From NCBI GenBank assembly GCA_040755975.1, contig JBFLZY010000005.1, positions 3,526 through 67,525 on the forward strand: DNA of 64,000 bases. The letters are read 5' to 3'. The notes beneath the pieces were generated by a model, which ran no database searches, was not told the origin of the DNA, and saw only the letters and a program-made list of their open reading frames with translations. Of this stretch, positions 1,048 through 62,160 are shown piece by piece. Made by a program: the position numbers and the translations under genes. Source of the DNA: Bacillota bacterium (GTDB lineage: Bacteria > Bacillota > Desulfotomaculia > Desulfotomaculales > Nap2-2B). Within the stretch, counting starts at the first letter, position 1. Every line of letters begins with the position of its first letter.

Positions 1048-2766
1048 CTATTCTCCGGTACTGAAAGTCCACCGCTCTGCGCCAATGCCGTCAAACTCAT
1101 TGCCTGCTTCGTCTTCCAGGAGGCCGCCGCCCACGGTCACCTGGTAGCTTTTCCTTGCCTCCAGTCCGTATTTTAGCCTGATCCTTAACGTATCGCCGTT
1201 TATGCTTACGGGATCGTCTTCCGCCAGGGCGACAACCTCGCTATCGGTAGTATTTTTTACCTTTATCCCGGCCGCCACCTCGTCCAGGTCATCCACCGCC
1301 CGAATATCCTCGGTGAATTCCACCTGCAAAGTTCTTGTGCCCGGCGGGACGTCGTCCTCTCCGTGCACGGGGGTCAGTTTGCGGATTGCCGGCGCCAGGG
1401 TGTCCCCGGTGGAAAAGACCCACTCACCCACCGCGATGCCCGGAAATTTATTTCCGTCCCTGTCCTGCAGGACGCCATTTTCAACAGTTACCTGATAGGT
1501 CTTATTATCCTCTAAATAGGTGGCGAGAGTGGCCGTCAAAACGTTGGAATGCAAAGAAACAGTTTTAATTTTCACGTCTTCATCATCTGTTACATTTTCG
1601 ATCTCTATCTCGTCCTTGACTGCGTCGAGATCATCTACCGGTTCTACTGGTTCGTTAAAAACGACTTGCAGCGAGGTTGTTTCCGGATCAACCCCGGTAG
1701 CTTTGTTGGCGGGAACCAGTTTAATAACCTGGGGGACCCTTTCCCCAGGTCGACTTGCCGGACCGCTGCTGCTTAAGATTACCAGGACCTCGCTCTCGCT
1801 CTTTGCGTTTAAGATCAGGATCACGCGCGCCTCCAAAGGAACTTCTGCGGGATCAGCCGGTTCCCCGTCGACAAAGGCGACCACATCTTCCGAGAAATTG
1901 AAGGTCCTGGTAACCGGTTGTTTCCAGAGGTCCGGCCAGTGCCCAAAGGGCGGGTACAGCCTGTAAGGGAACAACTGGATAGTGATGCTAGCGTCGTCCA
2001 CATCCTTCACAATCCCCTGCACCGCCCGGTAAACCGGGTGAAGGGGACACTGTGCCAGCAGCCTGAGCATGAGTGCAGCCATCTCTGCCCTTTTAACGGG
2101 CTGGTTGGGCCGGAAGACGTTGCCCGGATACCCCACCATGAGCTGGTTTTGGTAGGCGGCCGCAACGTACGCCCGGTATTGCCAGGGTATCCCGAAGGCA
2201 TCCAGAAAAGGCAAAGTCATGCTGGTTTCCGGTTGCAACCCTGCCGCCCGCACCAGCCAGGTGGCCACCTCGTAACGGCTTGCCGGTTCGTTGGCCCGCC
2301 AGCCGGCCAATTCGGCAGGGGTGATAACCCCTCTTTCGACAGCCAAAGCAAGGCTGTTTTGCGCCCACGCGGGAAATTCGCCGAATACTTCGCGCGCCGG
2401 CCTCGTTTTCGCTTTTTCCTGCTCCAGACCCAGCATCCGGATCAGCATGGCGACGGCTTCTTCCTTCTTAACGCTGGCTTCCGGCCGGAAACTCAGGTCG
2501 GGATAGCCCCTGACCATGCCGGCCATATACATAGCCACCATGGCCTCTTGCGCCCAGTGATTTTCAATATCCCGCAATTGAATTTTCTTTTGAAAGCGCT
2601 TTTGCATTACCCCTTTCCCTTTGTACTCCTGACCATATCCCTGGGGCGCCACAAATCTTTTTCCCTGGCCCCAATTAAAAGTGTTGGCCAAGGCGGTCTT
2701 CGTCCAAATCGTCAGAAGGAAACTCGCCAAAACCGCTGTCACCAGCAATTTGCTTCTTCTGAACAT
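1048..2766 (-). CDS. SLH-domain cell-surface protein with two tandem Ig-like C-terminal domains
   Basis: N-terminal signal peptide (LVTAVLASFLLTIWTKTALA). Three SLH-type repeats (HWAQEAM...GYPDLSFRP; ...VGYPGNVFRPNQPVKRAEMAALMLR). Two ~95-aa C-terminal repeats end in W(V/T)FSTG(D/E). Confidence 0.8.
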   Translation of the reverse strand: MFRRSKLLVTAVLASFLLTIWTKTALANTFNWGQGKRFVAPQGYGQEYKGKGVMQKRFQKKIQLRDIENHWAQEAMVAMYMAGMVRGYPDLSFRPEASVKKEEAVAMLIRMLGLEQEKAKTRPAREVFGEFPAWAQNSLALAVERGVITPAELAGWRANEPASRYEVATWLVRAAGLQPETSMTLPFLDAFGIPWQYRAYVAAAYQNQLMVGYPGNVFRPNQPVKRAEMAALMLRLLAQCPLHPVYRAVQGIVKDVDDASITIQLFPYRLYPPFGHWPDLWKQPVTRTFNFSEDVVAFVDGEPADPAEVPLEARVILILNAKSESEVLVILSSSGPASRPGERVPQVIKLVPANKATGVDPETTSLQVVFNEPVEPVDDLDAVKDEIEIENVTDDEDVKIKTVSLHSNVLTATLATYLEDNKTYQVTVENGVLQDRDGNKFPGIAVGEWVFSTGDTLAPAIRKLTPVHGEDDVPPGTRTLQVEFTEDIRAVDDLDEVAAGIKVKNTTDSEVVALAEDDPVSINGDTLRIRLKYGLEARKSYQVTVGGGLLEDEAGNEFDGIGAERWTFSTGE

Positions 2767-2924
2767 AACAAACCCCCCTTTTTGTCATCTGTCGAATCAG
2801 TTTTGGGTTGTGGTTTTAAGCAACCTTCTATTTTTCCCGGTATCAGCCCCCTTTTTTTAATATTTCTTACATTTAATTCCTTCTTTATCTAATTCTCTTA
2901 TACGTAGCAACCGGCATCTTTTTA

Positions 2925-2963
2925 GGGGGGCAAAAAAGAAAAATCCCCCGGAGAGATCGGGGG
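2925..2963 (-). terminator. rho-independent terminator downstream of the HAD hydrolase gene
   Basis: On the minus strand, CCCCCG-loop-CGGGGG (2945-2963) is followed by ATTTTTCTTTTTT. Confidence 0.5.
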
Positions 2964-3058
2964 TTGGAGATTGGAAGCGCCAAGAGTTAAGCCAACGACT
3001 TATTTTCACCCGTTCATCGCCTGCCCAACCGATGTGGATGACAGGCGCAGGGTTCAAG

Positions 3059-3703
3059 CTAAAGAGGGCGGGCGGCAAATCGCTGCGTCAAGTCATCCCA
3101 GGTCTCCAGCAACCCGTGGGGCTGCAGGGCGATTAACTCCTCCCTGGTGGCCATCCCCCAGGTAACCCCAAGGGTCACGGTCCCGGCTTTTAAACCCGCC
3201 GCGATGTCAAAATGGCTGTCGCCCACGTACAGCGCCTCCGGCGGTGAAGCGTTTAAGAGGGCGAGCGCCTTATATATAGGATCCGGAAAAGGTTTATGCC
3301 TGCCGACGTCCTGGGCCGTGACCACCACATCCAGGTAACGGCCCAGACCGGTCAATTCCACTGTCCGCCTCGTCCCGTCCCTTCCTTTCGAGGTGACGAT
3401 CCCTATGCGCAAGCCTTTTTCCTGCAAACAATCCAGCATCTCCAGCGTACCGGGGAAAAGGCGAACGCGCCGGTCATGCTCCCGGCCGTAATGATACTTG
3501 TACAGCTCCAGAAATTCCTTCTCCTTGCCCCTGGCAAAGTGAGCGGCAATGTCCTGGATCGGCAGCCCTATCCAGCGCATCACTGCGCCGTTAGACCAGG
3601 GCAGCCCCAGCAGATTAAACACCAGCTGGTAAGTCTTTTTAATAAAGGGGAGGGAATCGGCCAGAGTCCCGTCCAAATCAAATAAAACCACGGAAGTTTG
3701 CAA
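3059..3703 (-). CDS. HAD-superfamily phosphatase (phosphoglycolate phosphatase/PpaX-like)
   Basis: VLFDLDGTLADS motif I, TSK motif II, GDSHFD motif III/IV. Confidence 0.75.
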   Translation of the reverse strand: MQTSVVLFDLDGTLADSLPFIKKTYQLVFNLLGLPWSNGAVMRWIGLPIQDIAAHFARGKEKEFLELYKYHYGREHDRRVRLFPGTLEMLDCLQEKGLRIGIVTSKGRDGTRRTVELTGLGRYLDVVVTAQDVGRHKPFPDPIYKALALLNASPPEALYVGDSHFDIAAGLKAGTVTLGVTWGMATREELIALQPHGLLETWDDLTQRFAARPL

Positions 3704-3908: not shown

Positions 3909-5108
3909 ATGTCCATCAGCGACAAAATTAAAGAAAACCTGACCAAAGCTTCCTGGATTAGAAAAATGTTTGAAGAAGGGGCCCGCCTGCGGGCCATTTA
4001 CGGCCCCGCCAAGGTGTTTGATTTTACCCTGGGCAACCCCGGTGTTGAGCCGCCGCCGGCTTTCCGGGAAGAGTTAAAAAAGCTGGCCTTAAATCCCCTC
4101 CCAGGCATGCACGGGTACATGAGCAACGCCGGCTACGCAGAAACCAGGAAGGCTGTCGCTACAGTGCTGGCGGAAGATACCGGTTTGCCCTTTCACCCGG
4201 ATCACATCGTGATGACCTGCGGTGCGGGCGGCGGCTTAAACGTGGTGCTGAAAACCATCTTAAACCCCGGGGACGAAGTAATTGTCCTGGTTCCCTACTT
4301 TATGGAATACAGGTTTTACGTCGACAACCACGGCGGCACAATCAAGGAAGTCCGCACGCGGCCCGACTTCCAGCCCGACCTGGACGCCCTGGAAGCCGCC
4401 GTCACGCCAAAAACAAAAGCCATCATCATCAACTCGCCCAACAACCCGACCGGGGTCGTCTACCAGGAAAGCTGCCTGAATCAGTTGGGCGCTCTTTTAA
4501 GCAGAAAAGAAGCGGAACTCGGCACCACCATCTACCTTATTTCCGACGAACCCTACGCTAAAGTCGTTTACGACGGCGTAACCGTGCCCAGCGTTTTTAA
4601 GTCATTTGCCAACAGCATTGTAGTCACTTCCCACAGCAAAGACCTGGCCCTGGCCGGCGAACGCATCGGCTATATCGCCATCCACCCGGAGATTAAAGAT
4701 GCCGGTTTGCTCTTTGAAGGGCTGGTTTTTTGCAACCGCACGCTCGGTTTTGTCAACGCGCCGGCGCTGATGCAGCGGCTGGTTGCCGGTTTGCAAAGGG
4801 AAAAGGCCGATACCAAAGAATACCTGGAAAAACGCAACCTCCTTTACGACCACCTCACCTCTTTAGGTTTCACCATGGTTAAACCGCAGGGGGCCTTCTA
4901 CCTTTTCCCGCGCTCCCCTCTCCCGGACGACCTGGAGTTTGTCCGGCTGGCGCAAAAATACAACATCCTCCTCGTTCCCGGCGCCGGCTTCGGGCTGCCC
5001 GGATACTTCCGGCTTTCCTACAGCGTGCCCAGGGAAACGGTCGTTAACTCCCTGCCCGCCTTTACGGAACTGGCCAGAGAGCTTAATCTGACTCAGAAAA
5101 TAGATTAA
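3909..5108 (+). CDS. class I/II PLP-dependent aminotransferase
   Basis: 399 aa, with SPNNPTG and SHSKDLALAGERIGY (PLP-lysine motif). RBS GGGGGAAAG upstream. The last three codons and the stop lie inside a repeat element (see findings). Confidence 0.85.
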   Translation: MSISDKIKENLTKASWIRKMFEEGARLRAIYGPAKVFDFTLGNPGVEPPPAFREELKKLALNPLPGMHGYMSNAGYAETRKAVATVLAEDTGLPFHPDHIVMTCGAGGGLNVVLKTILNPGDEVIVLVPYFMEYRFYVDNHGGTIKEVRTRPDFQPDLDALEAAVTPKTKAIIINSPNNPTGVVYQESCLNQLGALLSRKEAELGTTIYLISDEPYAKVVYDGVTVPSVFKSFANSIVVTSHSKDLALAGERIGYIAIHPEIKDAGLLFEGLVFCNRTLGFVNAPALMQRLVAGLQREKADTKEYLEKRNLLYDHLTSLGFTMVKPQGAFYLFPRSPLPDDLEFVRLAQKYNILLVPGAGFGLPGYFRLSYSVPRETVVNSLPAFTELARELNLTQKID

Positions 5109-5343
5109 CCGCAAAGACGCAAAGAGCACAAAGACAAAATTATAGAGAACAGAGTTCAGATGAAAAATCGGTGATTTTCATCCCTTCATGGTGGGAACGT
5201 AAGTTTCCATGGGCAACTCCTTAAAAATAACGAAAACTGGAGCGGTAAATAACCGCAAAGACGTCAAGAACGAAAAGGATTTTTTAAAGGGTTTAAATTT
5301 CAATTTTTCTTTTATTCTTTGCGGACTTTGCGCCTTTGCGGTT
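5107..5343. repeat. imperfect palindromic intergenic element with 8-nt tandem-unit arms (GCAAAGAC type)
   Basis: Left arm AACCGCAAAGACGCAAAGAGCACAAAGA (5107-5134) matches about 24/28 of the reverse complement of TCTTTGCGGACTTTGCGCCTTTGCGGTT (5316-5343). An extra internal arm copy lies at 5251-5279. The element fills the whole convergent intergenic region. Confidence 0.7.
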
Positions 5344-5347
5344 TTAC

Positions 5348-5671
5348 TTACTCCTCCACCAGCATGAGCAGCTTTTCGTGCATGTGCAGGCTTAACTGGC
5401 GCATGACCTTTTGCAAGGTATCGGGATCGCCCAGCATCAAGCCGTCCTCCCAACGCTCCAGCAAATACTGGACAAATTCCATGAAACCGCTGGCCAGGGT
5501 CAAAGTATATAACTCCCGGTAACGGTTATTTTCCGGTTGGCACCCGCTCTTCACCTCATTTTTGTGGGTCAGCTGGAAGTTTTTAAGCACCTTTTCCTCC
5601 CTGGTCCACGAAACAATCCCGTCGATAATCTGGACCTCTTCACCGCAGGTTGCGCAGATAAATTTGGCCAT
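5348..5671 (-). CDS. hypothetical protein, 107 aa (MAKFICATCGEE...)
   Basis: The internal ATG at 5671 is preceded by GGGGGAGGG. The longer ORF start at 5743 has no RBS. No family recognised. Confidence 0.45.
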   Translation of the reverse strand: MAKFICATCGEEVQIIDGIVSWTREEKVLKNFQLTHKNEVKSGCQPENNRYRELYTLTLASGFMEFVQYLLERWEDGLMLGDPDTLQKVMRQLSLHMHEKLLMLVEE

Positions 5672-16075: not shown

Positions 16076-19000
16076 TTGCGGAACCGGGAAGCGGAACTGG
16101 CAGGGGCTTCCGGAGCAGTGGAGCACGCCCGCAAGCTGGCTGCAGAAGTAACGGCCGCGGCTTCCGCCAGGGCACACACTGCCGCCAGGGAGCTGAATAA
16201 AACCCTGGAAGAGCCGATGGCTTATTTGTCTCAACTAAACGGCGAGATCGACGCACTGAAAAAAGAGATGTCCTTACTGGAGCAGATTACCGGCCAGGCC
16301 GGATCTCCTAAAGAAACGGCCGCTGCAGGAGGTGTCCGCAAATCCGGGGAACCCCAGAACCCGCCTCATTCAACAGGTCCTTTAGTTTCTTGTTACCTCA
16401 TCCGGCTGGTCGCTTTTTTAAACGCAAGGCACTTCCTGGTTACCAAATCACGTAAAGGATCGGTTCACGCCCACTCCTGGCAGTTCCAGGTAGAAACCGA
16501 GGTTCCTTACGGGGAAGAATTTTTCGTCATGTTCAGGGAACTTCAGGAGAAAATCCAGCAGGCGCTGGCCCCCTTCGAAAATACCCTGTTAAACGAAAAA
16601 AGCCCCTTTGACAAAATACCGCCGGTGACGGAAAATATCGGCGCATATTTCTACCAGGTCCTGAGCAAGGAACTGGAAGGGTTGGGAGTCCGGCTGCGGA
16701 AGCTGACGGCGTGGGAGTCGCCCATAAAAGGGGTGGAAGTTTCCGGGAAGCTGCCGGGGTACATCTGCCCCGTGCTGGAGGGTGCCGGAAAGACCGGAGA
16801 CCCTCCGGAAACCGAAAAGGCGGCTGCGGAAGCCGCCGCTTCCCGGGCGGCGGCACACGAAGGTCAAGACTTGAAACTCTCTGCCGCCGGAACGGCGGCG
16901 GAGAAAGAACTCACTTCCCCGGAAGCGCGCTCATACCCGCCGGTGCAGTACGTCGCGGCGGCCTGTTTAATTCTCGGGGCGGCCCTGCTTGCCTACCACC
17001 GGATCCTTTTTGCCCCGCCCCAAGCGCTATGCCCTTGGGGATCGGACACCTGGGGACACCTCTACAAAGCGGAGTTCCTGGCCGGCGAGATAGGGAAGGG
17101 AAACCTTTACCCGTCGTTGTCGGCCCAATGGTACAACGGCTGCCAGCCCTTCCGTTACTGGGCGCCGTTATCCTATTATCTTGTTGCAGCCGTAAAAAGT
17201 TGGGCGGCAAACGTTTTTCTGGCCGGAAACATTTACTTTTTCCTTTGCGCCTTCCTGGGAGGGCTGGGGTGGCTCCTTCTGGCCGGAAAACTCGGCCTCT
17301 GGCCGGCGGCCCTGGCCGGGGCAGCCTGGATCTTTTGGCCGGATAACCTCCGTGTAGCCTTTTCCGAGGGCAACCTGCCGCGGGTTGCCGCCACGGCGCT
17401 TTTGCCGTTTCTCTTCGCCTTCTTTCTTCGAACCCTGGAAGAAAGGGGCCGCCTGCGGGAACCGGCGTTTTTTGTTGCGCTTACCCACGGCGTGATCCTT
17501 TGCCACGCCATGATAGGGGCCGTCTACATAACCTCCCTTTCGGCCTTTTCTCTTCTGCTCTTTCTCTTCGGCGGCTGCTCCCTGGCAGGGGTTCTGAGGG
17601 GGGCGGCGGCCCTGGCGGCGGGAGTGGCAACCTCGGCCTGGTGGCTTCTGCCGTCCCTAAAGGGCGGCCTGGCGGAAATGGGCCGGGAAGCAGCCTCCGG
17701 GGGTATCCAGTTTATTCCGGCCGCCATCTCTTTTAACCCGCTGGCCCGGTTCGCCGACGCGGAAGTCTTTTACTGGAGCTTTGCAACGGTAATCATCGCT
17801 CTGGCAATCCTCTGGAAATGGCGGACGAGGCCGCCGTGGGTCAAGGGGGTTTTCACGCTGGGAATTTTACTGGTGCTCATTACTATCCCCGCCTTCGAAC
17901 CGCTCTACAGGCTGCTCCCCCTTCACCACCTTCTCTGGCCGCAACGCTTTTCAAGCGTTGCCGGGCTGGCCTTCCTGGCGGGCGGGTTTGCGGTGGCGGC
18001 CAGGGGCAGGGAAAAGGGGCGCCTATTCAAGCGGCTGGCCGGAGGAATCCTCCTGCTCGCCATCTCCGGGGTTATCCTGCTGGACGGTTCCCTTTCCGCC
18101 CGCCTGCTGGCAGTCGCCCGCCCCGAGCCCCGCCTCATAGTCCAGGCGGCAGACAGGCTAAAGGAGGTGCCCGGCTGGAAGGTCGCCACTTTGGATTTGA
18201 GTCAGCTCGGTTCTTCCCCGGCCTACTATTTTTCTGCCCGCTCCGGGCGGGAGCAGGTATTCGGCTGGGCCTGGCAGGGGGCCGTCACGGCCCAAAACAT
18301 CATGCTTTTAAACACCTCTTTCGAATTCGGCCACTACCCTTTTTTGTTCCGGTCGCTCCTATTCCTGGGCGCCACCGACCTCGTGGCGAAAGAAGACCTG
18401 GTTAAAGATCCCGGTTCTTTTGAAAAGCTGGCCGGGGCCGCGGGTTACCAAAAACTTTCCTCGGCCGGCGGGATCGGCCTGTGGCACGGGAGGGCAAACG
18501 GCCCCTACCTGATAATCAAAAAAGACCGCGGCCTTGCGGTGGGGAAGCACGCCAGCATATACGCCCTCCAGTTCCCGGCCCTGGAGATCGGCCGCAGCGT
18601 TTATATAGACGACTACACCCCCGAGGAGCTGGCGCGCCACCCCGTGCTCATCCTCTCCGGCGCCTCCTGCCATTCCCGGGAAAGGGCCGAAAGGCTGGTC
18701 GTGGACTACGCGAAAGGAGGAGGCAGGGTCGTCGTCGACCTCACCGGCTTTCCGCCGGACGTCTGGAGCCGGCAGCCGAAGTTCCTGGGCGTTTACGGCG
18801 AGGAAATAACCCTCGCCGGGGAGATCAAAACCCGCAGCGACGGCCGCTCCCCGCAGTTCGCCCCCTTCGCCGGGGAGTTTCAGGCGTGGAAGTGCTACGC
18901 ACCCCACGGCCTGGACGAGGTGGACCTCGCGGCCGATTACTTCAACAAAGAAGTTGCCCTGTGGGGGTATAAAAACGTCGGGGGTTCCAAGATCGGCTTT

Positions 19001-19423
19001 TTGGGCTTGAACCTGGCGTACCACGCTTACCTCACCGGGGACCCCGCGGCAAGAAAAATGCTGGCGGATGTTACCGGACTGGCGGAGGAATTCAGCCCTC
19101 CCGAAATCGTTCCCCTGGAAGAATACCAGGTTAAGGATAATGGATATTTAATCACTTATGTGCTGGAGCGCGAGGTGCGGGCAGTCATCCCTGTGGCCGC
19201 CCTGGAAGGGATGCAGGCGGAGGTTGACGGCGAGCCGGTTCCCCTGGAAAAATTCGAGAACCTCGTCCTCGTGAAGCTGCCCGCCGGGCGCCACTTCCTG
19301 GATCTAACCCTCAAAGAGCCGCCGGTCTACGCCCTGGGCAGGGCGGTTTCCCTTACCAGCCTTGCCCTTGCGCCCGCTTCCCTCTTCTGGCTCTACGGAA
19401 GGAAAAGGAGGGAAAAGGTGTGA
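16076..19423 (+). CDS. giant membrane protein: coiled-coil N-terminus + QueD/PTPS-like domain + PTPS_related (GT-C-like) polytopic domain + large C-terminal domain + terminal TM anchor
   Basis: The TTG start at 16076 is the track start (GAGGAG 12 nt upstream). The frame is open from 15929, with an alternative ATT at 15974 lying 9 nt after GGAGG. Residues ~103-225 read NARHFL...SVHAHSWQFQVE...ENTLLN...PPVTENIG...LTAWESP, which follows the PTPS/QueD pattern (HGHSY, DHxxLN, PTxENIA, ET). About 13 hydrophobic helices follow. The C-terminus is ...SLALAPASLFWLYGRKRREKV. Confidence 0.8.
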   Translation: MRNREAELAGASGAVEHARKLAAEVTAAASARAHTAARELNKTLEEPMAYLSQLNGEIDALKKEMSLLEQITGQAGSPKETAAAGGVRKSGEPQNPPHSTGPLVSCYLIRLVAFLNARHFLVTKSRKGSVHAHSWQFQVETEVPYGEEFFVMFRELQEKIQQALAPFENTLLNEKSPFDKIPPVTENIGAYFYQVLSKELEGLGVRLRKLTAWESPIKGVEVSGKLPGYICPVLEGAGKTGDPPETEKAAAEAAASRAAAHEGQDLKLSAAGTAAEKELTSPEARSYPPVQYVAAACLILGAALLAYHRILFAPPQALCPWGSDTWGHLYKAEFLAGEIGKGNLYPSLSAQWYNGCQPFRYWAPLSYYLVAAVKSWAANVFLAGNIYFFLCAFLGGLGWLLLAGKLGLWPAALAGAAWIFWPDNLRVAFSEGNLPRVAATALLPFLFAFFLRTLEERGRLREPAFFVALTHGVILCHAMIGAVYITSLSAFSLLLFLFGGCSLAGVLRGAAALAAGVATSAWWLLPSLKGGLAEMGREAASGGIQFIPAAISFNPLARFADAEVFYWSFATVIIALAILWKWRTRPPWVKGVFTLGILLVLITIPAFEPLYRLLPLHHLLWPQRFSSVAGLAFLAGGFAVAARGREKGRLFKRLAGGILLLAISGVILLDGSLSARLLAVARPEPRLIVQAADRLKEVPGWKVATLDLSQLGSSPAYYFSARSGREQVFGWAWQGAVTAQNIMLLNTSFEFGHYPFLFRSLLFLGATDLVAKEDLVKDPGSFEKLAGAAGYQKLSSAGGIGLWHGRANGPYLIIKKDRGLAVGKHASIYALQFPALEIGRSVYIDDYTPEELARHPVLILSGASCHSRERAERLVVDYAKGGGRVVVDLTGFPPDVWSRQPKFLGVYGEEITLAGEIKTRSDGRSPQFAPFAGEFQAWKCYAPHGLDEVDLAADYFNKEVALWGYKNVGGSKIGFLGLNLAYHAYLTGDPAARKMLADVTGLAEEFSPPEIVPLEEYQVKDNGYLITYVLEREVRAVIPVAALEGMQAEVDGEPVPLEKFENLVLVKLPAGRHFLDLTLKEPPVYALGRAVSLTSLALAPASLFWLYGRKRREKV

Positions 19424-20103
19424 AGTCTTTTTTAAGCCGTCCGGCCGTTTTCGTCCTCCTCATCCTGTTCATCCTGGCCGGGCCGGCCTCCGCCGCCGAC
19501 AAAATCGTGATGGACGGCAAGTTCGGCGACTGGGACGGCCAGGCGCACATAACCGACCCCGCCGGCGACGGCGGGGTCGGCGGGGACGTCATGGTCTTCT
19601 ACTGGGCCACCAACCCCGGAGAATCCAACCTTTACTTCATGGTTGAGCGCGCTTTCCCGGGTTACAACCCCGTTTCCGTTTCGTACCAGCAAAACTTCGA
19701 CATCAACAACAACGGTTCTTACACGGACTCCGTCGACCGCTACGCGGTTATCACCTATTCCCCCACCCGGAGCAAGGGTTACGTGCAGGTGAGGGTCTAC
19801 CGCGCCGACGGCACCCTTATCGCCGGTTACGGCGGCAATTGGGGGGAAGGAACAAACAAGGGGCAAAACTACTGCGAGTACTACGTCACCATGACGTACC
19901 TGGGCATTGATCCGGGCCAGACCATCAGGATGTACCTGAGCAGCCAGGCAATGCCTTCCGACCGCTGCCCGGATACTGGCGACATCCAGTGGTCGCCCGT
20001 ACCCTTTATGGGTCCGGCGGGCCTGGCGGCTCTTCTAATCCTGAGCGCAACGCTCATCGTTATCTTCTTAAAGAAAAAGGGGGAGAAGGGTTGGCTTTCT
20101 TAA
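19420..20103 (+). CDS. secreted protein with C-terminal sorting-signal-like tail (motif + TM + basic cluster), candidate exosortase substrate
   Basis: The GTG start overlaps the upstream stop (GTGTGA), with AGGAGGG 6 nt upstream. Signal peptide VFVLLILFILAGPASA|ADK. C-terminus SPVPFMGP-AGLAALLILSATLIVIFL-KKKGEK. This resembles what NCBI names a Firmicu-CTERM sorting domain (memory). Confidence 0.75.
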   Translation: MKSFLSRPAVFVLLILFILAGPASAADKIVMDGKFGDWDGQAHITDPAGDGGVGGDVMVFYWATNPGESNLYFMVERAFPGYNPVSVSYQQNFDINNNGSYTDSVDRYAVITYSPTRSKGYVQVRVYRADGTLIAGYGGNWGEGTNKGQNYCEYYVTMTYLGIDPGQTIRMYLSSQAMPSDRCPDTGDIQWSPVPFMGPAGLAALLILSATLIVIFLKKKGEKGWLS

Positions 20104-20681
20104 TGGCGGCCGCTTTATTATGGGTAGTTGGGCTGGCATTTTTCAGGAGCCACCGCATCTGGGTGTTCTACTTCCCCTGGGGGGCGGTAGGCCTGACACT
20201 CCTCCTTATTCTCTTCCTGCGGGGCTCCCCGGTGGAATACCACCTGGAACGAGCAACGGCCCTTCTCCTCCAACAGGTAATGGGCCTTTTAAGCATCCCC
20301 GCCAGCGTCTTCGACCGCGCGGCGGGGATGGTGCTGGTCTTTATCGAGGCGGAGAAAAGCTGGACAGCCCTCGGTATCGATATAGAATGCTCGGGTCTCC
20401 TGGAGAGCTGCGTCTTTTTGGGGCTGGTCTTTTTTTACCCGGCCTTTTCCCTGCCGAAAAGAATCTTCTACGCTTCAACCGGGATTCTCGCCATCTACCT
20501 CATCAACCTGCTCAGGCTGTGCACCATCGTCTTTCTCATCAACGCATGCGGGCGGCAGGCCATTTACCTGGCCCACACCCTGGCCGGGCGGCTGGTGTTC
20601 TTTTTCCTGATCGTGGCCCTGTACTGGGCGATTTTCTCCCGGCCCACCCTGGCGGCCTTGAGGGGGCACCTGCATGACTGA
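20103..20681 (+). CDS. xrtG: exosortase/archaeosortase-family transpeptidase (XrtG-like), 192 aa
   Basis: The ATG at 20103 overlaps the upstream TAA (TAATG). About 6 TM helices. Ordered Cys96 (IDIECSG, codon 20388-20390), Arg138 (INLLRL) and His158 (LAHTLAGR) match the exosortase Cys/Arg/His signature. Confidence 0.8.
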   Translation: MAAALLWVVGLAFFRSHRIWVFYFPWGAVGLTLLLILFLRGSPVEYHLERATALLLQQVMGLLSIPASVFDRAAGMVLVFIEAEKSWTALGIDIECSGLLESCVFLGLVFFYPAFSLPKRIFYASTGILAIYLINLLRLCTIVFLINACGRQAIYLAHTLAGRLVFFFLIVALYWAIFSRPTLAALRGHLHD

Positions 20682-22020
20682 GCTCTTCCTTGAAAGGGCG
20701 GCAGGCGTCCTCTTTTTCTGGGGAGTCTTTTTGCTGGCTCCCCTGCTTATCGACCTCTCCACGGCAGTAATTCACCTCGCCGCCGTCCTCCTGTTCTTAT
20801 CGCCGTCCAGGAAGGGCCCGGCGGCGGAGGTGCCGGCCAACCCGCCCTTCATTTCCGTCGTGGTCCCCGTCTACAATTCTTCCGCCACCCTTTACCAGTG
20901 CCTGAACTCGATCGTCCACCAGACCTACCCGCAAAACCGGATGGAGATCATCTGCGTGGACAACGGCAGCACGGACGACAGCTTCAGCGTCTACAAGAAA
21001 TTCCAGCTCGACCACCCCGAGGCGGTAATTTCCTGGGCCAGCCTGTCCCGCCCCTGCAAGTCCTCGGCCTTGAACGCGGGGTTCTCCTTAAGCCGGGGTG
21101 TATACTTGGTCAATGTCGACTCGGATGTGCGGGTGGAAAAGGACGCGGTGAGGAAAATGATAGCGGCTTTTGAAAACGACCCGCTTCTCGTCGCCGCCAC
21201 GGGGGAAATCCGCATCGACAAGGACCTCGGTGCGGGGAAAAATTTAATAGACGTAATTCACTACTGTGAGGCCCTGGAGTACCTGATCGCTTTTTCCATC
21301 GGGAGGCGTTTTCAAACCCTCACCAACACCATCTTTACCCTTTCGGGGGCGCTTACCGCCTTCCGCCGGGAAGCCCTCTACTGCTCGCACCTGTACTCCA
21401 GCCGCACCCTCTCCGAGGACACGGACCTCTCCTACCGCCTGCGCGACGCCCGGAAGAAAGGCTGCCGGCTGGGCTGCGTGGCGGGGGCCGTGGCCTACGT
21501 AGAACCCATTTCCTCCCTGGACCGGCTCTACTCGCAAAGGGTGAGGTGGCAGCGGGGCGAACTGGAGGTGGCCTCTTTATACAGGTGGGACACCGGCTTT
21601 TTCACGGCCTTGACCCGCTTTACCGGGCGCATCCTGATCTCCGACCACACGTTGAGCCTTTCCCGGTTAACCTGGACCTTCCTGATCCCCTTCCTGTACC
21701 TTCTGGGCTACCCCCTGCCGCTGGTTCTGGCCGCCCTGGTGGGGCTCTACATCTGCTACCTGGCCCTGGACTTCATCTATTACCTGACCGCCTGCCGGTA
21801 CGTCCCTGCGGATTACCGGACCGGGCTGAAGAAGATATGGTGGGCGGTCTTCTTCCTTCCCGTGTTTCGCTGGACCGTCTACTGGTTCCGGCTGGCGGGA
21901 ATCATCCTGGCCCTCCAGGAGCCGGGCGCGTGGAGGGTGGAAAACCCCCTTCGGAAAGCAAAGGAAGCGCTCCGGCATCTAGTTCAAAAAGTGCACAACC
22001 CGGCTTCAAAAAACTGTTAA
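20674..22020 (+). CDS. membrane-embedded processive family-2 glycosyltransferase (polysaccharide synthase type)
   Basis: ATG overlaps the xrtG stop (ATGACTGA). Motifs VVVPVYN, DNGSTDDS, VDSDV, SEDTDLSYR and QRVRWQRG (QxxRW). TM helices flank the catalytic domain. Confidence 0.85.
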   Translation: MTELFLERAAGVLFFWGVFLLAPLLIDLSTAVIHLAAVLLFLSPSRKGPAAEVPANPPFISVVVPVYNSSATLYQCLNSIVHQTYPQNRMEIICVDNGSTDDSFSVYKKFQLDHPEAVISWASLSRPCKSSALNAGFSLSRGVYLVNVDSDVRVEKDAVRKMIAAFENDPLLVAATGEIRIDKDLGAGKNLIDVIHYCEALEYLIAFSIGRRFQTLTNTIFTLSGALTAFRREALYCSHLYSSRTLSEDTDLSYRLRDARKKGCRLGCVAGAVAYVEPISSLDRLYSQRVRWQRGELEVASLYRWDTGFFTALTRFTGRILISDHTLSLSRLTWTFLIPFLYLLGYPLPLVLAALVGLYICYLALDFIYYLTACRYVPADYRTGLKKIWWAVFFLPVFRWTVYWFRLAGIILALQEPGAWRVENPLRKAKEALRHLVQKVHNPASKNC

Positions 22021-22028
22021 ACTGAAGG

Positions 22029-22403
22029 GTGTTCTCTGTGAAAAACGAATTTCTCTGGTTGATCTCATCAATTCTCCTTGGCGCCATCGGTCAGTGCCTC
22101 CTTAAGCTTTCGGTGCTCAAGATGGACGGCGTTGTTTTCAATTGGCCGAATTTCCTCCCTGTTTTGGCGAAAATATTCACCAACAGCGGGATCATTTCAG
22201 GTCTAATCATTTTTGCCGCAAGTATGATCCTGTGGTTGAAAGTTCTCTCCGAAATGGAGTTAAGCAGAGCTTATCCGTCTGTGAGTTTGGCTTATTTAGT
22301 TGTTTTCTTTTTTTCCGTTCTTTTCCTGGGAGAAAAAGTTACCGCCTGGAAGTTGGCCGGACTGGCTTGCATCATTATTGGGATCTATTTTATTCACCAC
22401 TAG
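22029..22403 (+). CDS. 4-TM SMR/EamA-like small membrane protein (ArnE/ArnF-type flippase candidate)
   Basis: 124 aa with four hydrophobic helices and the motif SRAYPSVSLAYLVV typical of the EamA/SMR fold. It lies next to a polyprenyl-phosphate glycosyltransferase gene. Confidence 0.6.
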   Translation: MFSVKNEFLWLISSILLGAIGQCLLKLSVLKMDGVVFNWPNFLPVLAKIFTNSGIISGLIIFAASMILWLKVLSEMELSRAYPSVSLAYLVVFFFSVLFLGEKVTAWKLAGLACIIIGIYFIHH

Positions 22404-22501
22404 CACCAGATAGTTAGAAAAGCCCGTATCAAACAAATTTGGCGTCATATCGCCGTAAGTGCTCCTCCCCTCCCTCGAAAATAGAAACAATAACCATAAT
22501 T

Positions 22502-22609
22502 ATGCAGAAAACTTGGGATCGAGCACGAAAGGAACATGCCGCACTACGAAGATATCATCTATCTGTGCCGGAAGCCATGGCCTGCGGAACACCTTCACCA
22601 ATGAACTGA
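22502..22609 (+). pseudogene. possible remnant of a GT4-type glycosyltransferase C-terminus
   Basis: The short frame ...RRYHLSVPEAMACGTPSPMN* resembles the GT-B motif (G)LxxLEAMACGTPV. Only about 35 codons, no RBS. Confidence 0.2.
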
Positions 22610-22646
22610 AGATAGAGTTTAATCGTTAATCCTGGGGGTTTCAGTT

Positions 22647-23612
22647 ATGGAGGATAAAAGGTATGAACCATGTGAAGCGAAGGAATTTCCCACAATATCG
22701 ATCATTGTTCCTATGTACAACGAAGCCGAGAATATTGGACCGTTTTACGAGCGGCTTAGAAAGGTCCTCGATGAGATTGGCGAGCCCTATGAGATAATCT
22801 GCGTAAACGATGGTTCAACCGATGCAACTCTGGAGAAGCTCTTGAAGCTGCGAGAAAAAGACCAGAATGTAAAGGTTATCGACTTTTCGCGAAACTTCGG
22901 CAAGGAGATAGCCCTGACGGCAGGTCTTGACTTCTCCTCAGGGATGGCAATTATTCCCATCGATGCGGATCTTCAGGACCCGCCTGAGCTGATTCCGCAT
23001 CTCGTGGCTAAGTGGAAAGAGGGTTACGAGGTGGTTTATGCTACCCGGAAAAGCCGTCATGGAGAATCTTGGTTTAAAAAGCTGGCGGCTCATGCCTTTT
23101 ACCGGCTCGCAGAAAAGATTATGGATATCAACATCCCCCGCGATACCGGTGACTTCCGCCTGATGGACAGGTCTGTGGTGGAAGCCTTAAAAGCCCTGAG
23201 GGAAAGAAACCGCTTCATGAAAGGCCTGTTTGCCTGGGTGGGTTTTAAACAGGCTGCCGTCCATTATGAGAGAGAACCTCGCCATAAGGGAAAAACCAAG
23301 TGGAATTATTTTAAGCTCTGCAACCTTGCCATAGAAGGTATTACCTCTTTTAGTTATGTTCCTCTTCGGCTGGCTACCTATGTAGGGCTTGTGGTTGCAC
23401 TCCTGGCTTTTCTTTATGCTGCTTATATCGTAATGGTCACCCTGATTTATGGCAATCCTGTGCCTGGTTGGCCCTCACTGGTTACCATTGTATTATTTTT
23501 GGGTGGGGTGCAGCTTATCTGCACCGGGATCCTTGGTGAATACATCGGGCGGATCTATAACGAGGTAAAGCAAAGGCCCGTGTATATGGTCAGACAAAAA
23601 TGGGGGTTATAG
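22647..23612 (+). CDS. family-2 glycosyltransferase, polyprenyl-phosphate sugar transferase type (GtrB/CsbB/ArnC-like)
   Basis: ISIIVPMYNE, NDGSTD, IDADLQDPPE, plus two C-terminal TM helices. RBS GGGGG upstream. Confidence 0.85.
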   Translation: MEDKRYEPCEAKEFPTISIIVPMYNEAENIGPFYERLRKVLDEIGEPYEIICVNDGSTDATLEKLLKLREKDQNVKVIDFSRNFGKEIALTAGLDFSSGMAIIPIDADLQDPPELIPHLVAKWKEGYEVVYATRKSRHGESWFKKLAAHAFYRLAEKIMDINIPRDTGDFRLMDRSVVEALKALRERNRFMKGLFAWVGFKQAAVHYEREPRHKGKTKWNYFKLCNLAIEGITSFSYVPLRLATYVGLVVALLAFLYAAYIVMVTLIYGNPVPGWPSLVTIVLFLGGVQLICTGILGEYIGRIYNEVKQRPVYMVRQKWGL

Positions 23613-60304: not shown

Positions 60305-60916
60305 TCAATCCTCCTTGTACAAACCCTGTTCCGTGATGTAATTTTCTACCACCTCCGGCAGCAAATATTTAATTGGCCGGCCCGTGAGCACGCGCTCCCG
60401 GATGTCCGTTGAGGATATCGCCAGCGCCGGCACCTCCATCACAATAATCCGCTTCAACTGCTCTTCTTGAATACCCGGCAGTTTCTTCCCCAGCCTGCCC
60501 AGCCTGTAGCCGGGGCGCTTGGCGGCAATAAAACAACACTGGTTAAGCAATTCATCAATGTGCTTCCAGCTCAAAATCTCCAATACGGCATCCGCCCCGG
60601 TAATAAAAAAAATTTCGGCCAGGGGATAGATTTTGCGCATATCCCTGACCGTATTGATTGTATAGGATAAACCGGGTCTCTCGATCTCAATGGCGGAAGC
60701 ACTAAAAAAGGGGTTGCTCTGAATGGCTAACTGCGTCATGGCCAGGCGGTGACGGGCGTCCGAAATCCTTCTGGAAACCTTGTGGGGGGGTTGCCCGGCC
60801 GGGATAAAAATCACCTGCTCGAGCCCAAACTGGTAACGGGCTTCTTCCGCGGCCACCAGGTGGCCATGATGAATGGGATCAAAAGTTCCGCCCATAATAC
60901 CGACTCTCTGCACCAA
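60305..60916 (-). CDS. nadD: nicotinate-nucleotide adenylyltransferase
   Basis: GIMGGTFDPIHHGH and ...ISSTDIR motifs. The TTG (or adjacent GTG) start lies 7 nt after AAGGAG. Confidence 0.85.
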   Translation of the reverse strand: MVQRVGIMGGTFDPIHHGHLVAAEEARYQFGLEQVIFIPAGQPPHKVSRRISDARHRLAMTQLAIQSNPFFSASAIEIERPGLSYTINTVRDMRKIYPLAEIFFITGADAVLEILSWKHIDELLNQCCFIAAKRPGYRLGRLGKKLPGIQEEQLKRIIVMEVPALAISSTDIRERVLTGRPIKYLLPEVVENYITEQGLYKED

Positions 60917-60924
60917 ATCAATAC

Positions 60925-60987
60925 TCCTTTGTCCCTTTGTGCCTTTCTACCTCTATCCCTCTGTCCCTTTGTGCCTTTCCCCTCACT
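60925..60987. repeat. solo arm of the 8-nt-unit family (CCCTTTGT GCCTTTCT ACCTCTAT CCCTCTGT CCCTTTGT GCCTTTCC)
   Basis: Read directly between proB and nadD. No inverted partner within 150 nt. Its distal end contributes the nadD RBS. Confidence 0.6.
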
Positions 60988-61077
60988 GCCCGGCCTCTTT
61001 GGCGCGGGCCGCCTTGTCCCTGACTTCCCGCTCAAAACTCAATTCGCCTTGCCTCCCTACCACAAAATGTCAGGTTG

Positions 61078-62160
61078 TTATCCACTCAACACCAGGTTAT
61101 TCCGGTGAACAACCTCTTCGTACCCTTTGTGACCAAGCAGCTTTTCGATATCTCTTGTCTTCGCGCCCTTAATTGTGTTGATTTCCTCAGCGGAAAAGTT
61201 GCTTATCCCGCGGGCGATTTCCCTGCCGGCGGAATCGTAAATGCTTACCGTGTTACCCATTTCAAAGTCACCCTCCACCCCGACGACGCCTGACGGCAAG
61301 AGGCTTTTTCCCCTGTGCACCAGGGCCGCGGCGGCCCCCTCGTCGACGTATATCTTCCCGTGCACGTTGGCGCTGTAGGCAATCCACCGCTTTTTATTCT
61401 CCAGCCGCACCACGGGCCAGAAGACCGTCCCCAGCGACTCCCCGCTTGCCACCCGGCGAACTACGTCTTTTTCGGCCGCCGCAGCCAGAACCATAATCAT
61501 TCCGGAATGCATGGCAATTTTCGCGGCCTGGATTTTGGTGACCATGCCGCCGGTACCCAGGCTGTTCCGCGTGCCGGCGGCAATTTGCTCCAATTCCGGC
61601 GTGATTTCTTTAACCTCGGGAATCAGCCTGGCCGAACCGCAACGCGGGTCGCCCTCGTAAAAACCGTCGATATCGGAAAGCATGATTAATAAATCGGCGT
61701 CAACGAGGCCGCCCACCAGCGCGGCCAGGTTGTCGTTATCCCCCAGCTTGATTTCTTCCACGGCCACCGTATCGTTTTCGTTGATGACCGGCAGCACACC
61801 CATACGCAGCAACGTATACAGAGTGTTGCGGGCGTTTAAAAAACGCTTCCGGTCGGCAAAATCCTCCCTGGTTAACAGCACCTGCCCGACCGGTATGTTA
61901 TATTCGGCAAAGCATCTTTCGTAAATATGGATCAGGATGCCCTGTCCAACCGCCGCCGCTGCCTGTTTTTCCGGAATTGTCTTGGGCCGCCGGGCATAGC
62001 CGAGCCTGTTTAAGCCTACCCCGATTGCGCCGGAAGTAACCAGGAGGACCTCTTTCCCCTGGTTATGCAGGTCAGCCAGCTGGCGAACCAGGTTTTCGAT
62101 CTGGGCGAGGTTCGGGCGTCCGGTAGGGTAAACCAGGGAACTTGAACCAATTTTAACCAC
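61078..62160 (-). CDS. proB: glutamate 5-kinase with C-terminal PUA domain
   Basis: VKIGSSSL, VTSGA and the PUA tail. The conserved N-terminal KRIVVKIGSS begins upstream of the GTG at 62160, so the true start may be the ATT at 62199 (see findings). Confidence 0.85.
   Translation of the reverse strand: MVKIGSSSLVYPTGRPNLAQIENLVRQLADLHNQGKEVLLVTSGAIGVGLNRLGYARRPKTIPEKQAAAAVGQGILIHIYERCFAEYNIPVGQVLLTREDFADRKRFLNARNTLYTLLRMGVLPVINENDTVAVEEIKLGDNDNLAALVGGLVDADLLIMLSDIDGFYEGDPRCGSARLIPEVKEITPELEQIAAGTRNSLGTGGMVTKIQAAKIAMHSGMIMVLAAAAEKDVVRRVASGESLGTVFWPVVRLENKKRWIAYSANVHGKIYVDEGAAAALVHRGKSLLPSGVVGVEGDFEMGNTVSIYDSAGREIARGISNFSAEEINTIKGAKTRDIEKLLGHKGYEEVVHRNNLVLSG

Follow-up and report, generated by a model that had tools for sequence, protein, structure and literature searches.

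A divergent relative of the Firmicu-CTERM proteins as candidate dedicated client of the exosortase XrtG in a Bacillota bacterium

Here we focus on a small secreted protein encoded directly ahead of the exosortase gene xrtG in 64,000 nucleotides of DNA from a Bacillota bacterium (NCBI GenBank assembly GCA_040755975.1, contig JBFLZY010000005.1, positions 3,526 to 67,525), a stretch referred to below as the window. The gene of this protein, which we call the partner, was defined from its open reading frame and translation; it lies on the forward strand at window positions 19420-20103 and encodes 227 amino acids. It is followed on the same strand by xrtG (20103-20681, 192 amino acids). Comparative sequence analysis suggests that the adjacent XrtG probably has the partner as its only, dedicated client and processes it. 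The partner is placed by its alignments as a divergent member of the Firmicu-CTERM superfamily, in a sister clade of the Firmicu-CTERM family which lies outside that family by the curated threshold. An earlier reading of the same letters (the sequence-only reading) had named the protein a candidate cognate substrate of the exosortase. The comparisons support this proposal in four respects: the two genes are adjacent or fused at every locus, the partner occurs only together with XrtG, its tail is the only one of its kind in the genome, and the presence of the XrtG nucleophile follows the presence of the tail.

Homologous loci were collected by scanning one genome per species, which yielded 47 true homologue loci in Bacillota and Chloroflexota. 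Outside the Chloroflexota these come from Syntrophomonadaceae, Peptococcaceae and Pelotomaculum, and within it from Anaerolineae, Dehalococcoidales, Herpetosiphonaceae, Oscillochloris, Ktedonobacterales and Ca. Lucifugimonas. The partner domain lies directly 5' of XrtG or is fused to it at all 47 loci. Wherever the contig extends far enough, a membrane protein with a PTPS_related domain is encoded upstream (or is fused) and a family-2 glycosyltransferase (GT2) downstream, and the metagenomic loci L001-L004 have the same gene order. In a sample of 401 genomes drawn evenly from the window's phylum, XrtG was clear in 11, 10 of which encode the full partner domain. The full domain was found in none of the 390 genomes that have no strong XrtG match, where two weak partial matches without the tail were seen. 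An abundance of similar tails in genomes lacking any exosortase, which the sequence-only reading had named as grounds for refutation, was therefore not encountered in this sample. That reading had also suggested looking through the genome for more proteins ending in a similar motif, membrane helix and basic cluster. In the window genome (92% complete), a hidden Markov model (HMM) of the tail finds the partner alone (E = 2e-19, next match 0.086), and a regular expression and the tail HMM, applied to all six-frame open reading frames, revealed no second protein with such a tail. A many-to-one sorting system was rejected on the strength of this single tail-bearing protein. The single tail, the adjacency or fusion and the exclusive co-occurrence together point to a dedicated one-to-one pair.

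The partner combines an N-terminal signal peptide with the tripartite layout of a C-terminal sorting signal of the LPXTG/PEP-CTERM/PGF-CTERM class, as read from the sequence and the alignments and as reflected in two helices (residues 4-19 and 198-224) of an AlphaFold2 model built on 34 homologues. The predicted signal peptide spans residues 1-25 (19420-19494) and reads MKSFLSRPAVFVLLILFILAGPASA/ADK, with an n-h-c layout and an AxA site at which cleavage is predicted (ASA/ADK). A hydrophobic N-terminus is kept in all homologues and the AxA site in most of the stand-alone ones, which, with the modelled helix 4-19, is consistent with the signal peptide proposed in the sequence-only reading. At the other end, residues 192-227 consist of SPVPFMG, the 19-residue hydrophobic helix PAGLAALLILSATLIVIFL, the basic cluster KKKGEK and a terminal GWLS. 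The transmembrane helix (residues 199-217, 20014-20070) falls within the modelled helix 198-224, and the basic cluster (20071-20088), predicted to lie on the cytoplasmic side, has an Arg/Lys-rich counterpart in all tail-bearing homologues. Ahead of the helix, the juxtamembrane motif D181-G198 (DRCPDTGDIQWSPVPFMG, 19960-20013), marked out by invariant alignment columns, is the candidate region for recognition and cleavage by XrtG. In the tail alignment of 31 sequences this motif is the best-conserved segment of the protein. The 10 closest homologues all share D181, R182, P184, D185, G187, D188, I189, W191, P193, P195 and G198, and about 45 further loci retain a core of [IV][QT][WY][STA]P followed by the transmembrane helix and Arg/Lys cluster, so that the resemblance to a sorting tail goes far beyond chance. 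The sequence-only reading was right about the three parts, all of which are present and conserved, but took the motif to be a short Pro/Gly stretch, whereas in full it is DRxPDxGDIQWSPVPxxG. A strand formed by residues 189-191 (IQW) is part of the folded body in the AlphaFold2 model, and SPVPxxG alone would thus serve as the linker to the membrane helix.

Between the two ends lies the extracytoplasmic body (residues 26-191, 19495-19992), which opens with an invariant DGxFxDW and is predicted to fold as a beta-sandwich of about 10 strands (42-191). The model is confident, with a mean predicted local distance difference test score (pLDDT) of 89.6, a predicted template modelling score (pTM) of 0.80 and 10-residue block means of 93-98 over the core, and it agrees with the beta-rich body anticipated from the sequence. 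A conserved DxNNNG...D loop occupies residues 94-106 (DINNNGSYTDSVD, 19699-19737), in which D94 and D106 are invariant across the 34 sequences and N96, N98 and G99 in the 10 closest. This loop resembles a Ca2+-binding loop and may act as one; further invariant aspartates are D32, D37, D46 and D56. The sequence-only reading had likened the opening DGKFGDWDG to the start of carbohydrate-binding modules (CBM) and DOMON-like domains. This identity was dropped after a Pfam scan and a PDB sequence search gave no match to the partner and Foldseek found nothing in the PDB at E <= 0.001, the top entry being a CBM56 structure (5t7a, E = 0.05, TMq 0.26). A 15-bit match to a Ralstonia fucose-lectin model was set aside as noise-level.

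At a number of loci the partner is no longer a separate protein. Fusion to the C-terminus of the PTPS_related protein is found at nine of them (Firmicute L018-L021 and Chloroflexota L037, L042, L045, L068 and L069), with products of about 1070-1300 amino acids (816 for L021, counted from the first start codon). In L018-L021 (genomes G161, G145, G105 and G271) the former signal peptide, its AxA site intact, has become an extra transmembrane segment between the two parts, and the partner retains its own tail. XrtG at the loci of PTPS_related-partner fusions has Cys at the nucleophile position, or Ser in L037, L042 and L045. Fusion to the N-terminus of XrtG, giving proteins of about 400 amino acids, occurs at 12 Syntrophomonadaceae-type loci. 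Frames of this kind are found in L025 (2974-4176 on the reverse strand), L026, L032, L033, L041, L046, L047, L052, L054, L055 and L073 and, frameshifted, in L071. In these fusions, DRLPDQGDIQW(A/S)PFP leads directly into the first transmembrane helix of XrtG, the transmembrane helix and basic cluster of the partner are gone, and the N-terminal hydrophobic segment carries no AxA site. Locus L039 (1467-6158, forward strand), from a Pelotomaculum metagenome-assembled genome (MAG), unites PTPS_related, partner and XrtG in one 1564-amino-acid frame with His at the Cys position. The predicted topology agrees across these architectures, with the domain outside, the tail helix or first XrtG helix running from outside to inside, and the basic residues inside. 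Such natural fusions argue that PTPS_related, the partner and XrtG act together physically.

XrtG itself is recognized by curated models and by its active-site residues. The window protein scores 122.2 bits against TIGR03110 (cut-off 102.75) and 54.9 bits against the TIGR04178 signature, and the motif columns of the XrtG alignment identify Cys96 (20388-20390), within I-E-C-S-G, Arg138 (20514-20516) and His158 (20574-20576), so that it belongs to XrtG by both score and residues. The homologous cysteine of the Haloferax volcanii exosortase-family enzyme ArtA, Cys173, is required for ArtA activity (PMC9263693). No solved structure was found for any relative of XrtG. At the 42 loci whose partner has its own transmembrane/basic tail, the nucleophile position is occupied without exception by Cys (28) or Ser (14) in an E-x-S-G motif, and Arg and His are kept in all 42. 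The 14 Ser cases form one Chloroflexota clade with E-S-S-G (L037, L042, L045, L057, L059-L066, L070 and L072), and these XrtG proteins may be serine-nucleophile exosortases. Where the partner is fused to XrtG and has no tail of its own (12 loci), the same position holds Asn (10), Ser (1, L047) or His (1, L039). The fusions form one clade (support 100/99), which we treat as a single event in evolution with subsequent drift at the Cys site. XrtG without any partner gene was found at one locus, L023 (G016:C42, about 60830-61369), where the position is Ala. No partner is encoded anywhere in this 98% complete genome. Its XrtG does not belong to the fusion clade, and the length of its terminal branch, 3.11 substitutions per site where the median is 0.22, gives the impression of decay once the partner had been lost. 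A search of the order to which G016 belongs for further XrtG proteins without a partner returned G016 alone. Among 17 further database XrtG proteins of stand-alone length, 16 have E-C-S-G, and the most distant (P0176) has no match to the motif. Retention of the nucleophile wherever a tail exists, and its loss in both independent tail-less cases, offers the best indirect support at hand for catalysis by XrtG on the tail.

If the partner is indeed a client, its path could be pictured as follows. It would be exported by Sec and lose its signal peptide, leaving the beta-sandwich at the external membrane surface, anchored by the C-terminal transmembrane helix with KKKGEK in the cytoplasm, an arrangement suggested by both the sequence and the fusion architectures. 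XrtG, by analogy with ArtA, would use Cys96, Arg138 and His158 to recognise ...GDIQW-SPVP-xxG, cut off the transmembrane/basic tail and pass the new C-terminus via an acyl-enzyme to an acceptor in the envelope. The domain would then be a membrane-proximal part of a polysaccharide or glycosylation machine composed of PTPS_related, the processive GT2, a flippase and a polyprenyl-phosphate sugar transferase. The product of ArtA stays membrane-bound via a lipid (PMC9263693), and by the same analogy the product of XrtG probably stays membrane- or envelope-bound, which fits the replacement of the reaction by a permanent fusion in one lineage.

A rather unlikely alternative, though the strongest that we considered, is that nothing is cleaved at all. 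The partner would be a permanent subunit of a complex with PTPS_related, XrtG and GT2, its tail a plain anchor, its motif a docking surface and XrtG a scaffold. The fusions to XrtG, to PTPS_related and, in L039, to both are what such a complex would leave behind, and the missing AxA site of the XrtG fusions implies that the domain is there probably tethered at both ends. Several findings weigh against processing of the tail as the whole account. The fusion clade has lost the Cys, yet the motif, Arg, His and the remainder of XrtG are conserved in it, which points to an additional, non-catalytic role, for example in docking or scaffolding. The loss of Cys together with the tail comprises two independent events only. 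Typical sorting signals are preceded by free linkers, whereas here the first half of the motif forms a strand within the folded body, and the window protein itself has no match to the curated Firmicu-CTERM model. Moreover, an AlphaFold2 model of a natural partner-XrtG fusion has confident halves but no fixed interface (pTM 0.59, junction pLDDT about 70-75). The natural fusions to XrtG and PTPS_related show the protein to be no less a fixed component of the machine than a cargo that is set free. However, a pure scaffold would not need the nucleophile, Arg and His that are kept at every locus with a separate tail, and loss of the nucleophile is confined to loci that offer no tail to cut. A motif, transmembrane helix and basic cluster at the extreme C-terminus, beside an exosortase gene, also have the look of dedicated sorting systems (bioRxiv 10.1101/2023.06.07.544157).

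Processing of the partner by XrtG as its dedicated client is compatible with, rather than opposed to, a further and quite improbable reading, according to which the main role of the partner is to accept or carry the glycan made by the cluster, for example by being O-glycosylated via the PgfS-like/GT-C-like route or bound to the GT2 polymer, and XrtG couples protein to polysaccharide by a covalent bond. The cluster does encode GT2 and PTPS_related, the latter faintly YfhO-like, together with a flippase of the ArnE/F type and a transferase resembling PgfS/ArnC, and the top fold neighbour of the body, although non-significant, is a CBM56. Against this, no lectin or CBM match is significant, and the pair of flippase and PgfS-like genes was seen in the window and in L001, the two loci checked. 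That the neighbourhood is coincidental and the tail a chance resemblance to a sorting signal deserves hardly any credence, since it could appeal to the absent direct match to the curated model and nothing more, and is already contradicted by the consistent adjacency or fusion in two phyla, the occurrence with XrtG only and the gene fusions.

The same observations can tentatively be extended to an evolutionary scheme, which is possible but which we would not hold to be likely. XrtG systems would form a series that starts with separate enzyme and substrate and ends with the two permanently fused and the nucleophile dead. The partner would normally end up tethered at the membrane beside XrtG, as a working extracytoplasmic module of a polysaccharide machine of GT-C-like protein and GT2 and not as released cargo. 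The window would represent the ancestral, catalytically competent form. If this were true, XrtG would replace a peptide anchor with one of lipid or glycan, or would hold the domain as a long-lived acyl-enzyme, and the clade of the window, which reaches the Chloroflexota, would include a branch with a serine nucleophile.

The placement of the partner relative to the Firmicu-CTERM family was reached by way of intermediate sequences. Among 5.8 billion proteins, nine homologues of the partner were found, the closest being annotated by NCBI as a hypothetical protein of a Bacillota MAG, and a profile of the family recovered 365 clusters among 1.84 billion representatives. The sequence-only reading gave the name Firmicu-CTERM as that of a model for such tails. 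However, TIGR04145.2, an equivalog_domain model, has 191 positions and describes the whole domain of about 190 amino acids (cut-off 50 bits). It gave no match to the partner at E <= 0.1, none to the tail alone at E <= 10 and none in the whole genome at E <= 10. Close relatives of the partner reach 14-23 bits, in every case with an alignment that stays in register from the start of the mature protein into the tail, and weaker full-length matches to our profile (about 210 amino acids) reach 29-45 bits over positions 1-190, TIGR04145.2 being their sole NCBIfam match. Comparison of the window clade with these near-TIGR04145 proteins by hhalign gave a probability of 99.94% (E = 5.9e-37) over 193 columns, the tail included, with DRxPDsGDIQWSPvp of the former aligned to DRvPDxGxIxISTVSTyP of the latter. 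Because the bridging sequences themselves score below the 50-bit cut-off, the relationship is one of superfamily-level kinship and not of equivalog membership. The name was apt for the kinship and for the pairing with XrtG, and inapt as a family assignment: the partner falls short of the curated score, is homologous over the whole domain, and stands as a single copy next to XrtG. A search with protein P0117 for named canonical Firmicu-CTERM proteins returned one further unnamed protein and nothing else. NCBI annotation pairs Firmicu-CTERM proteins with XrtG, as quoted for Lactiplantibacillus plantarum (PMC12854382), and the pairing is already known as a curated prediction. A full-text literature search found no experimental study of XrtG processing a Firmicu-CTERM protein.

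Comparison with described sorting systems shows which features are shared and which are particular to the window clade. With the system of Firmicu-CTERM (TIGR04145) and XrtG (TIGR03110) it shares a secreted domain of about 190 amino acids that starts with DGxFxDW and ends with DRxPDxG..., a transmembrane helix and basic residues. It also shares occurrence once per genome, directly before xrtG and beside a TIGR03111-type GT2 and a TIGR03112 PTPS-related protein (PMC12854382). It differs in that TIGR04145.2 does not detect the window protein and scores its clade below the cut-off, in a motif of IQWSPVPxxG in place of IxISTVSTxP, in the DxNNNG...D loop, which is absent from the near-canonical clade, and in a distribution that reaches the Chloroflexota, beyond the Firmicutes of the name. 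The PGF-CTERM/ArtA system of H. volcanii likewise joins a signal made of motif, transmembrane helix and basic residues to a polytopic enzyme of the exosortase family for which a Cys is essential (PMC9263693). In contrast to the one-to-one XrtG system, ArtA has many unrelated substrates and a different motif; moreover, the motif of the XrtG partner directly adjoins the folded domain and is in part a piece of it, and processing by XrtG is here a prediction. PEP-CTERM and XrtA (EpsH) share the enzyme superfamily, the linkage to exopolysaccharide genes and a motif followed by a transmembrane helix and an Arg/Lys-rich tail (PMC1569441), but their hosts are diderm, their targets typically number many per genome (mean >14, median 8; PMC1569441) as opposed to one here, and the motif is unrelated. 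Dedicated one-to-one systems such as JDVT-CTERM and its cleavage enzyme likewise have one target per strain, a co-operonic enzyme, a sporadic taxonomy and a conserved two-gene neighbourhood as evidence (bioRxiv 10.1101/2023.06.07.544157); enzyme family and motif differ. The passages of this preprint reached by a term search contain no mention of enzyme-substrate fusions with a lost nucleophile.

The window locus and its relatives add a clade of partners that the NCBI model misses and that have hence been labelled hypothetical, and they extend the XrtG system from Firmicutes to Chloroflexota. That the partner is naturally fused to XrtG at some loci and to PTPS_related at others argues for the physical association of all three, and the nucleophile, kept where the partner has a cleavable tail and lost where it has none, amounts to a natural "mutagenesis" series. 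Taken together, the clade, the fusions and this series offer a simple testable model of how exosortases act in monoderms and to what they attach their client. The fusions, the loss of the nucleophile and the spread to Chloroflexota go unmentioned in the papers searched. The finding does not come as a surprise and is best regarded as a useful refinement of a sorting system that was largely anticipated.

The neighbours of the pair are those of an XrtG system, with an XrtG-associated GT2 and a PTPS-related protein both adjacent. Upstream, a polytopic membrane protein of 1115 amino acids (16076-19423, forward strand) has a PTPS domain that matches TIGR03112 with 74.4 bits (cut-off 69.35) and a PTPS_related domain (PF10131) with E = 1.9e-144. 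We take PTPS_related to be GT-C-like, in line with Pfam's clan assignment. The C-terminus of this protein (19318-19423), with PPVYALG, a transmembrane helix and GRKRREKV, is superficially like the partner tail; its relatives keep the helix and basic residues and have no conserved motif of the W-S-P type, and we do not take it for a second XrtG signal. Downstream, the XrtG-associated processive GT2 (20674-22020, forward strand), which is PgaC/NodC-like, scores 354.2 bits against TIGR03111, just under the cut-off of 363.95 yet by far its top match, and also matches PF00535. It is followed on the same strand by a small ArnE/F-like EamA transporter (22029-22403) and a PgfS/ArnC/GtrB-like polyprenyl-phosphate glycosyltransferase (22647-23612), both identified with NCBIfam and Pfam. 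These two (22029-23612) are probably accessory genes; the same pair lies downstream in L001.

The partner frame opens with GTG, 8 nucleotides downstream of a GGAGG at 19407-19411. Within GTGA (19420-19423) this start overlaps the TGA stop of the gene upstream. At the other end the partner's stop codon TAA (20101-20103) and the ATG of xrtG (20103) have one base in common, as TAATG. Given this arrangement, and given that the TIGR03110 match starts two residues past the Met encoded at 20103, the overlap described in the sequence-only reading is genuine and one base long. The 3' end of xrtG also overlaps the start of the GT2 gene. Overlaps at each junction imply that the four genes for PTPS_related, partner, XrtG and GT2 are translationally coupled. 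No terminator-like site with more than six stem pairs was found on the forward strand between 16076 and 20103, a scan that we do not count as evidence.

Several loci depart from the common arrangement. L040 carries tandem partner paralogues (4187-4870 and 4917-5648) before a single XrtG, and the motif of the first is degenerate (SSDSTSSVQWSPIP). L040 and L048 lie in MAGs labelled Deltaproteobacteria and Methylocystaceae, and their XrtG proteins nest inside the Syntrophomonadaceae clade, so the labels probably reflect mis-binning or recent transfer. In L004 the second gene (274 amino acids) was ruled out as a partner paralogue. The PTPS domain of the same locus resides in a separate protein of 248 amino acids (2657-3403), where it is fused to a response-regulator receiver domain, the protein matching PF00072 and PF01242. 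A separate small open reading frame for PTPS is also seen at many Chloroflexota loci. L022 (G015:C33, 6601-8488) looks degenerate: the partner is in frame for its C-terminal 138 amino acids only, and XrtG and GT2 share one frame of 482 amino acids in which parts of each are missing. Finally, the partners of L059, L062, L064, L066 and L070 (Dehalococcoidales and Ca. Lucifugimonas) are 477-591 amino acids long, their conserved domain being preceded by an additional N-terminal domain and a linker rich in Pro and Thr.

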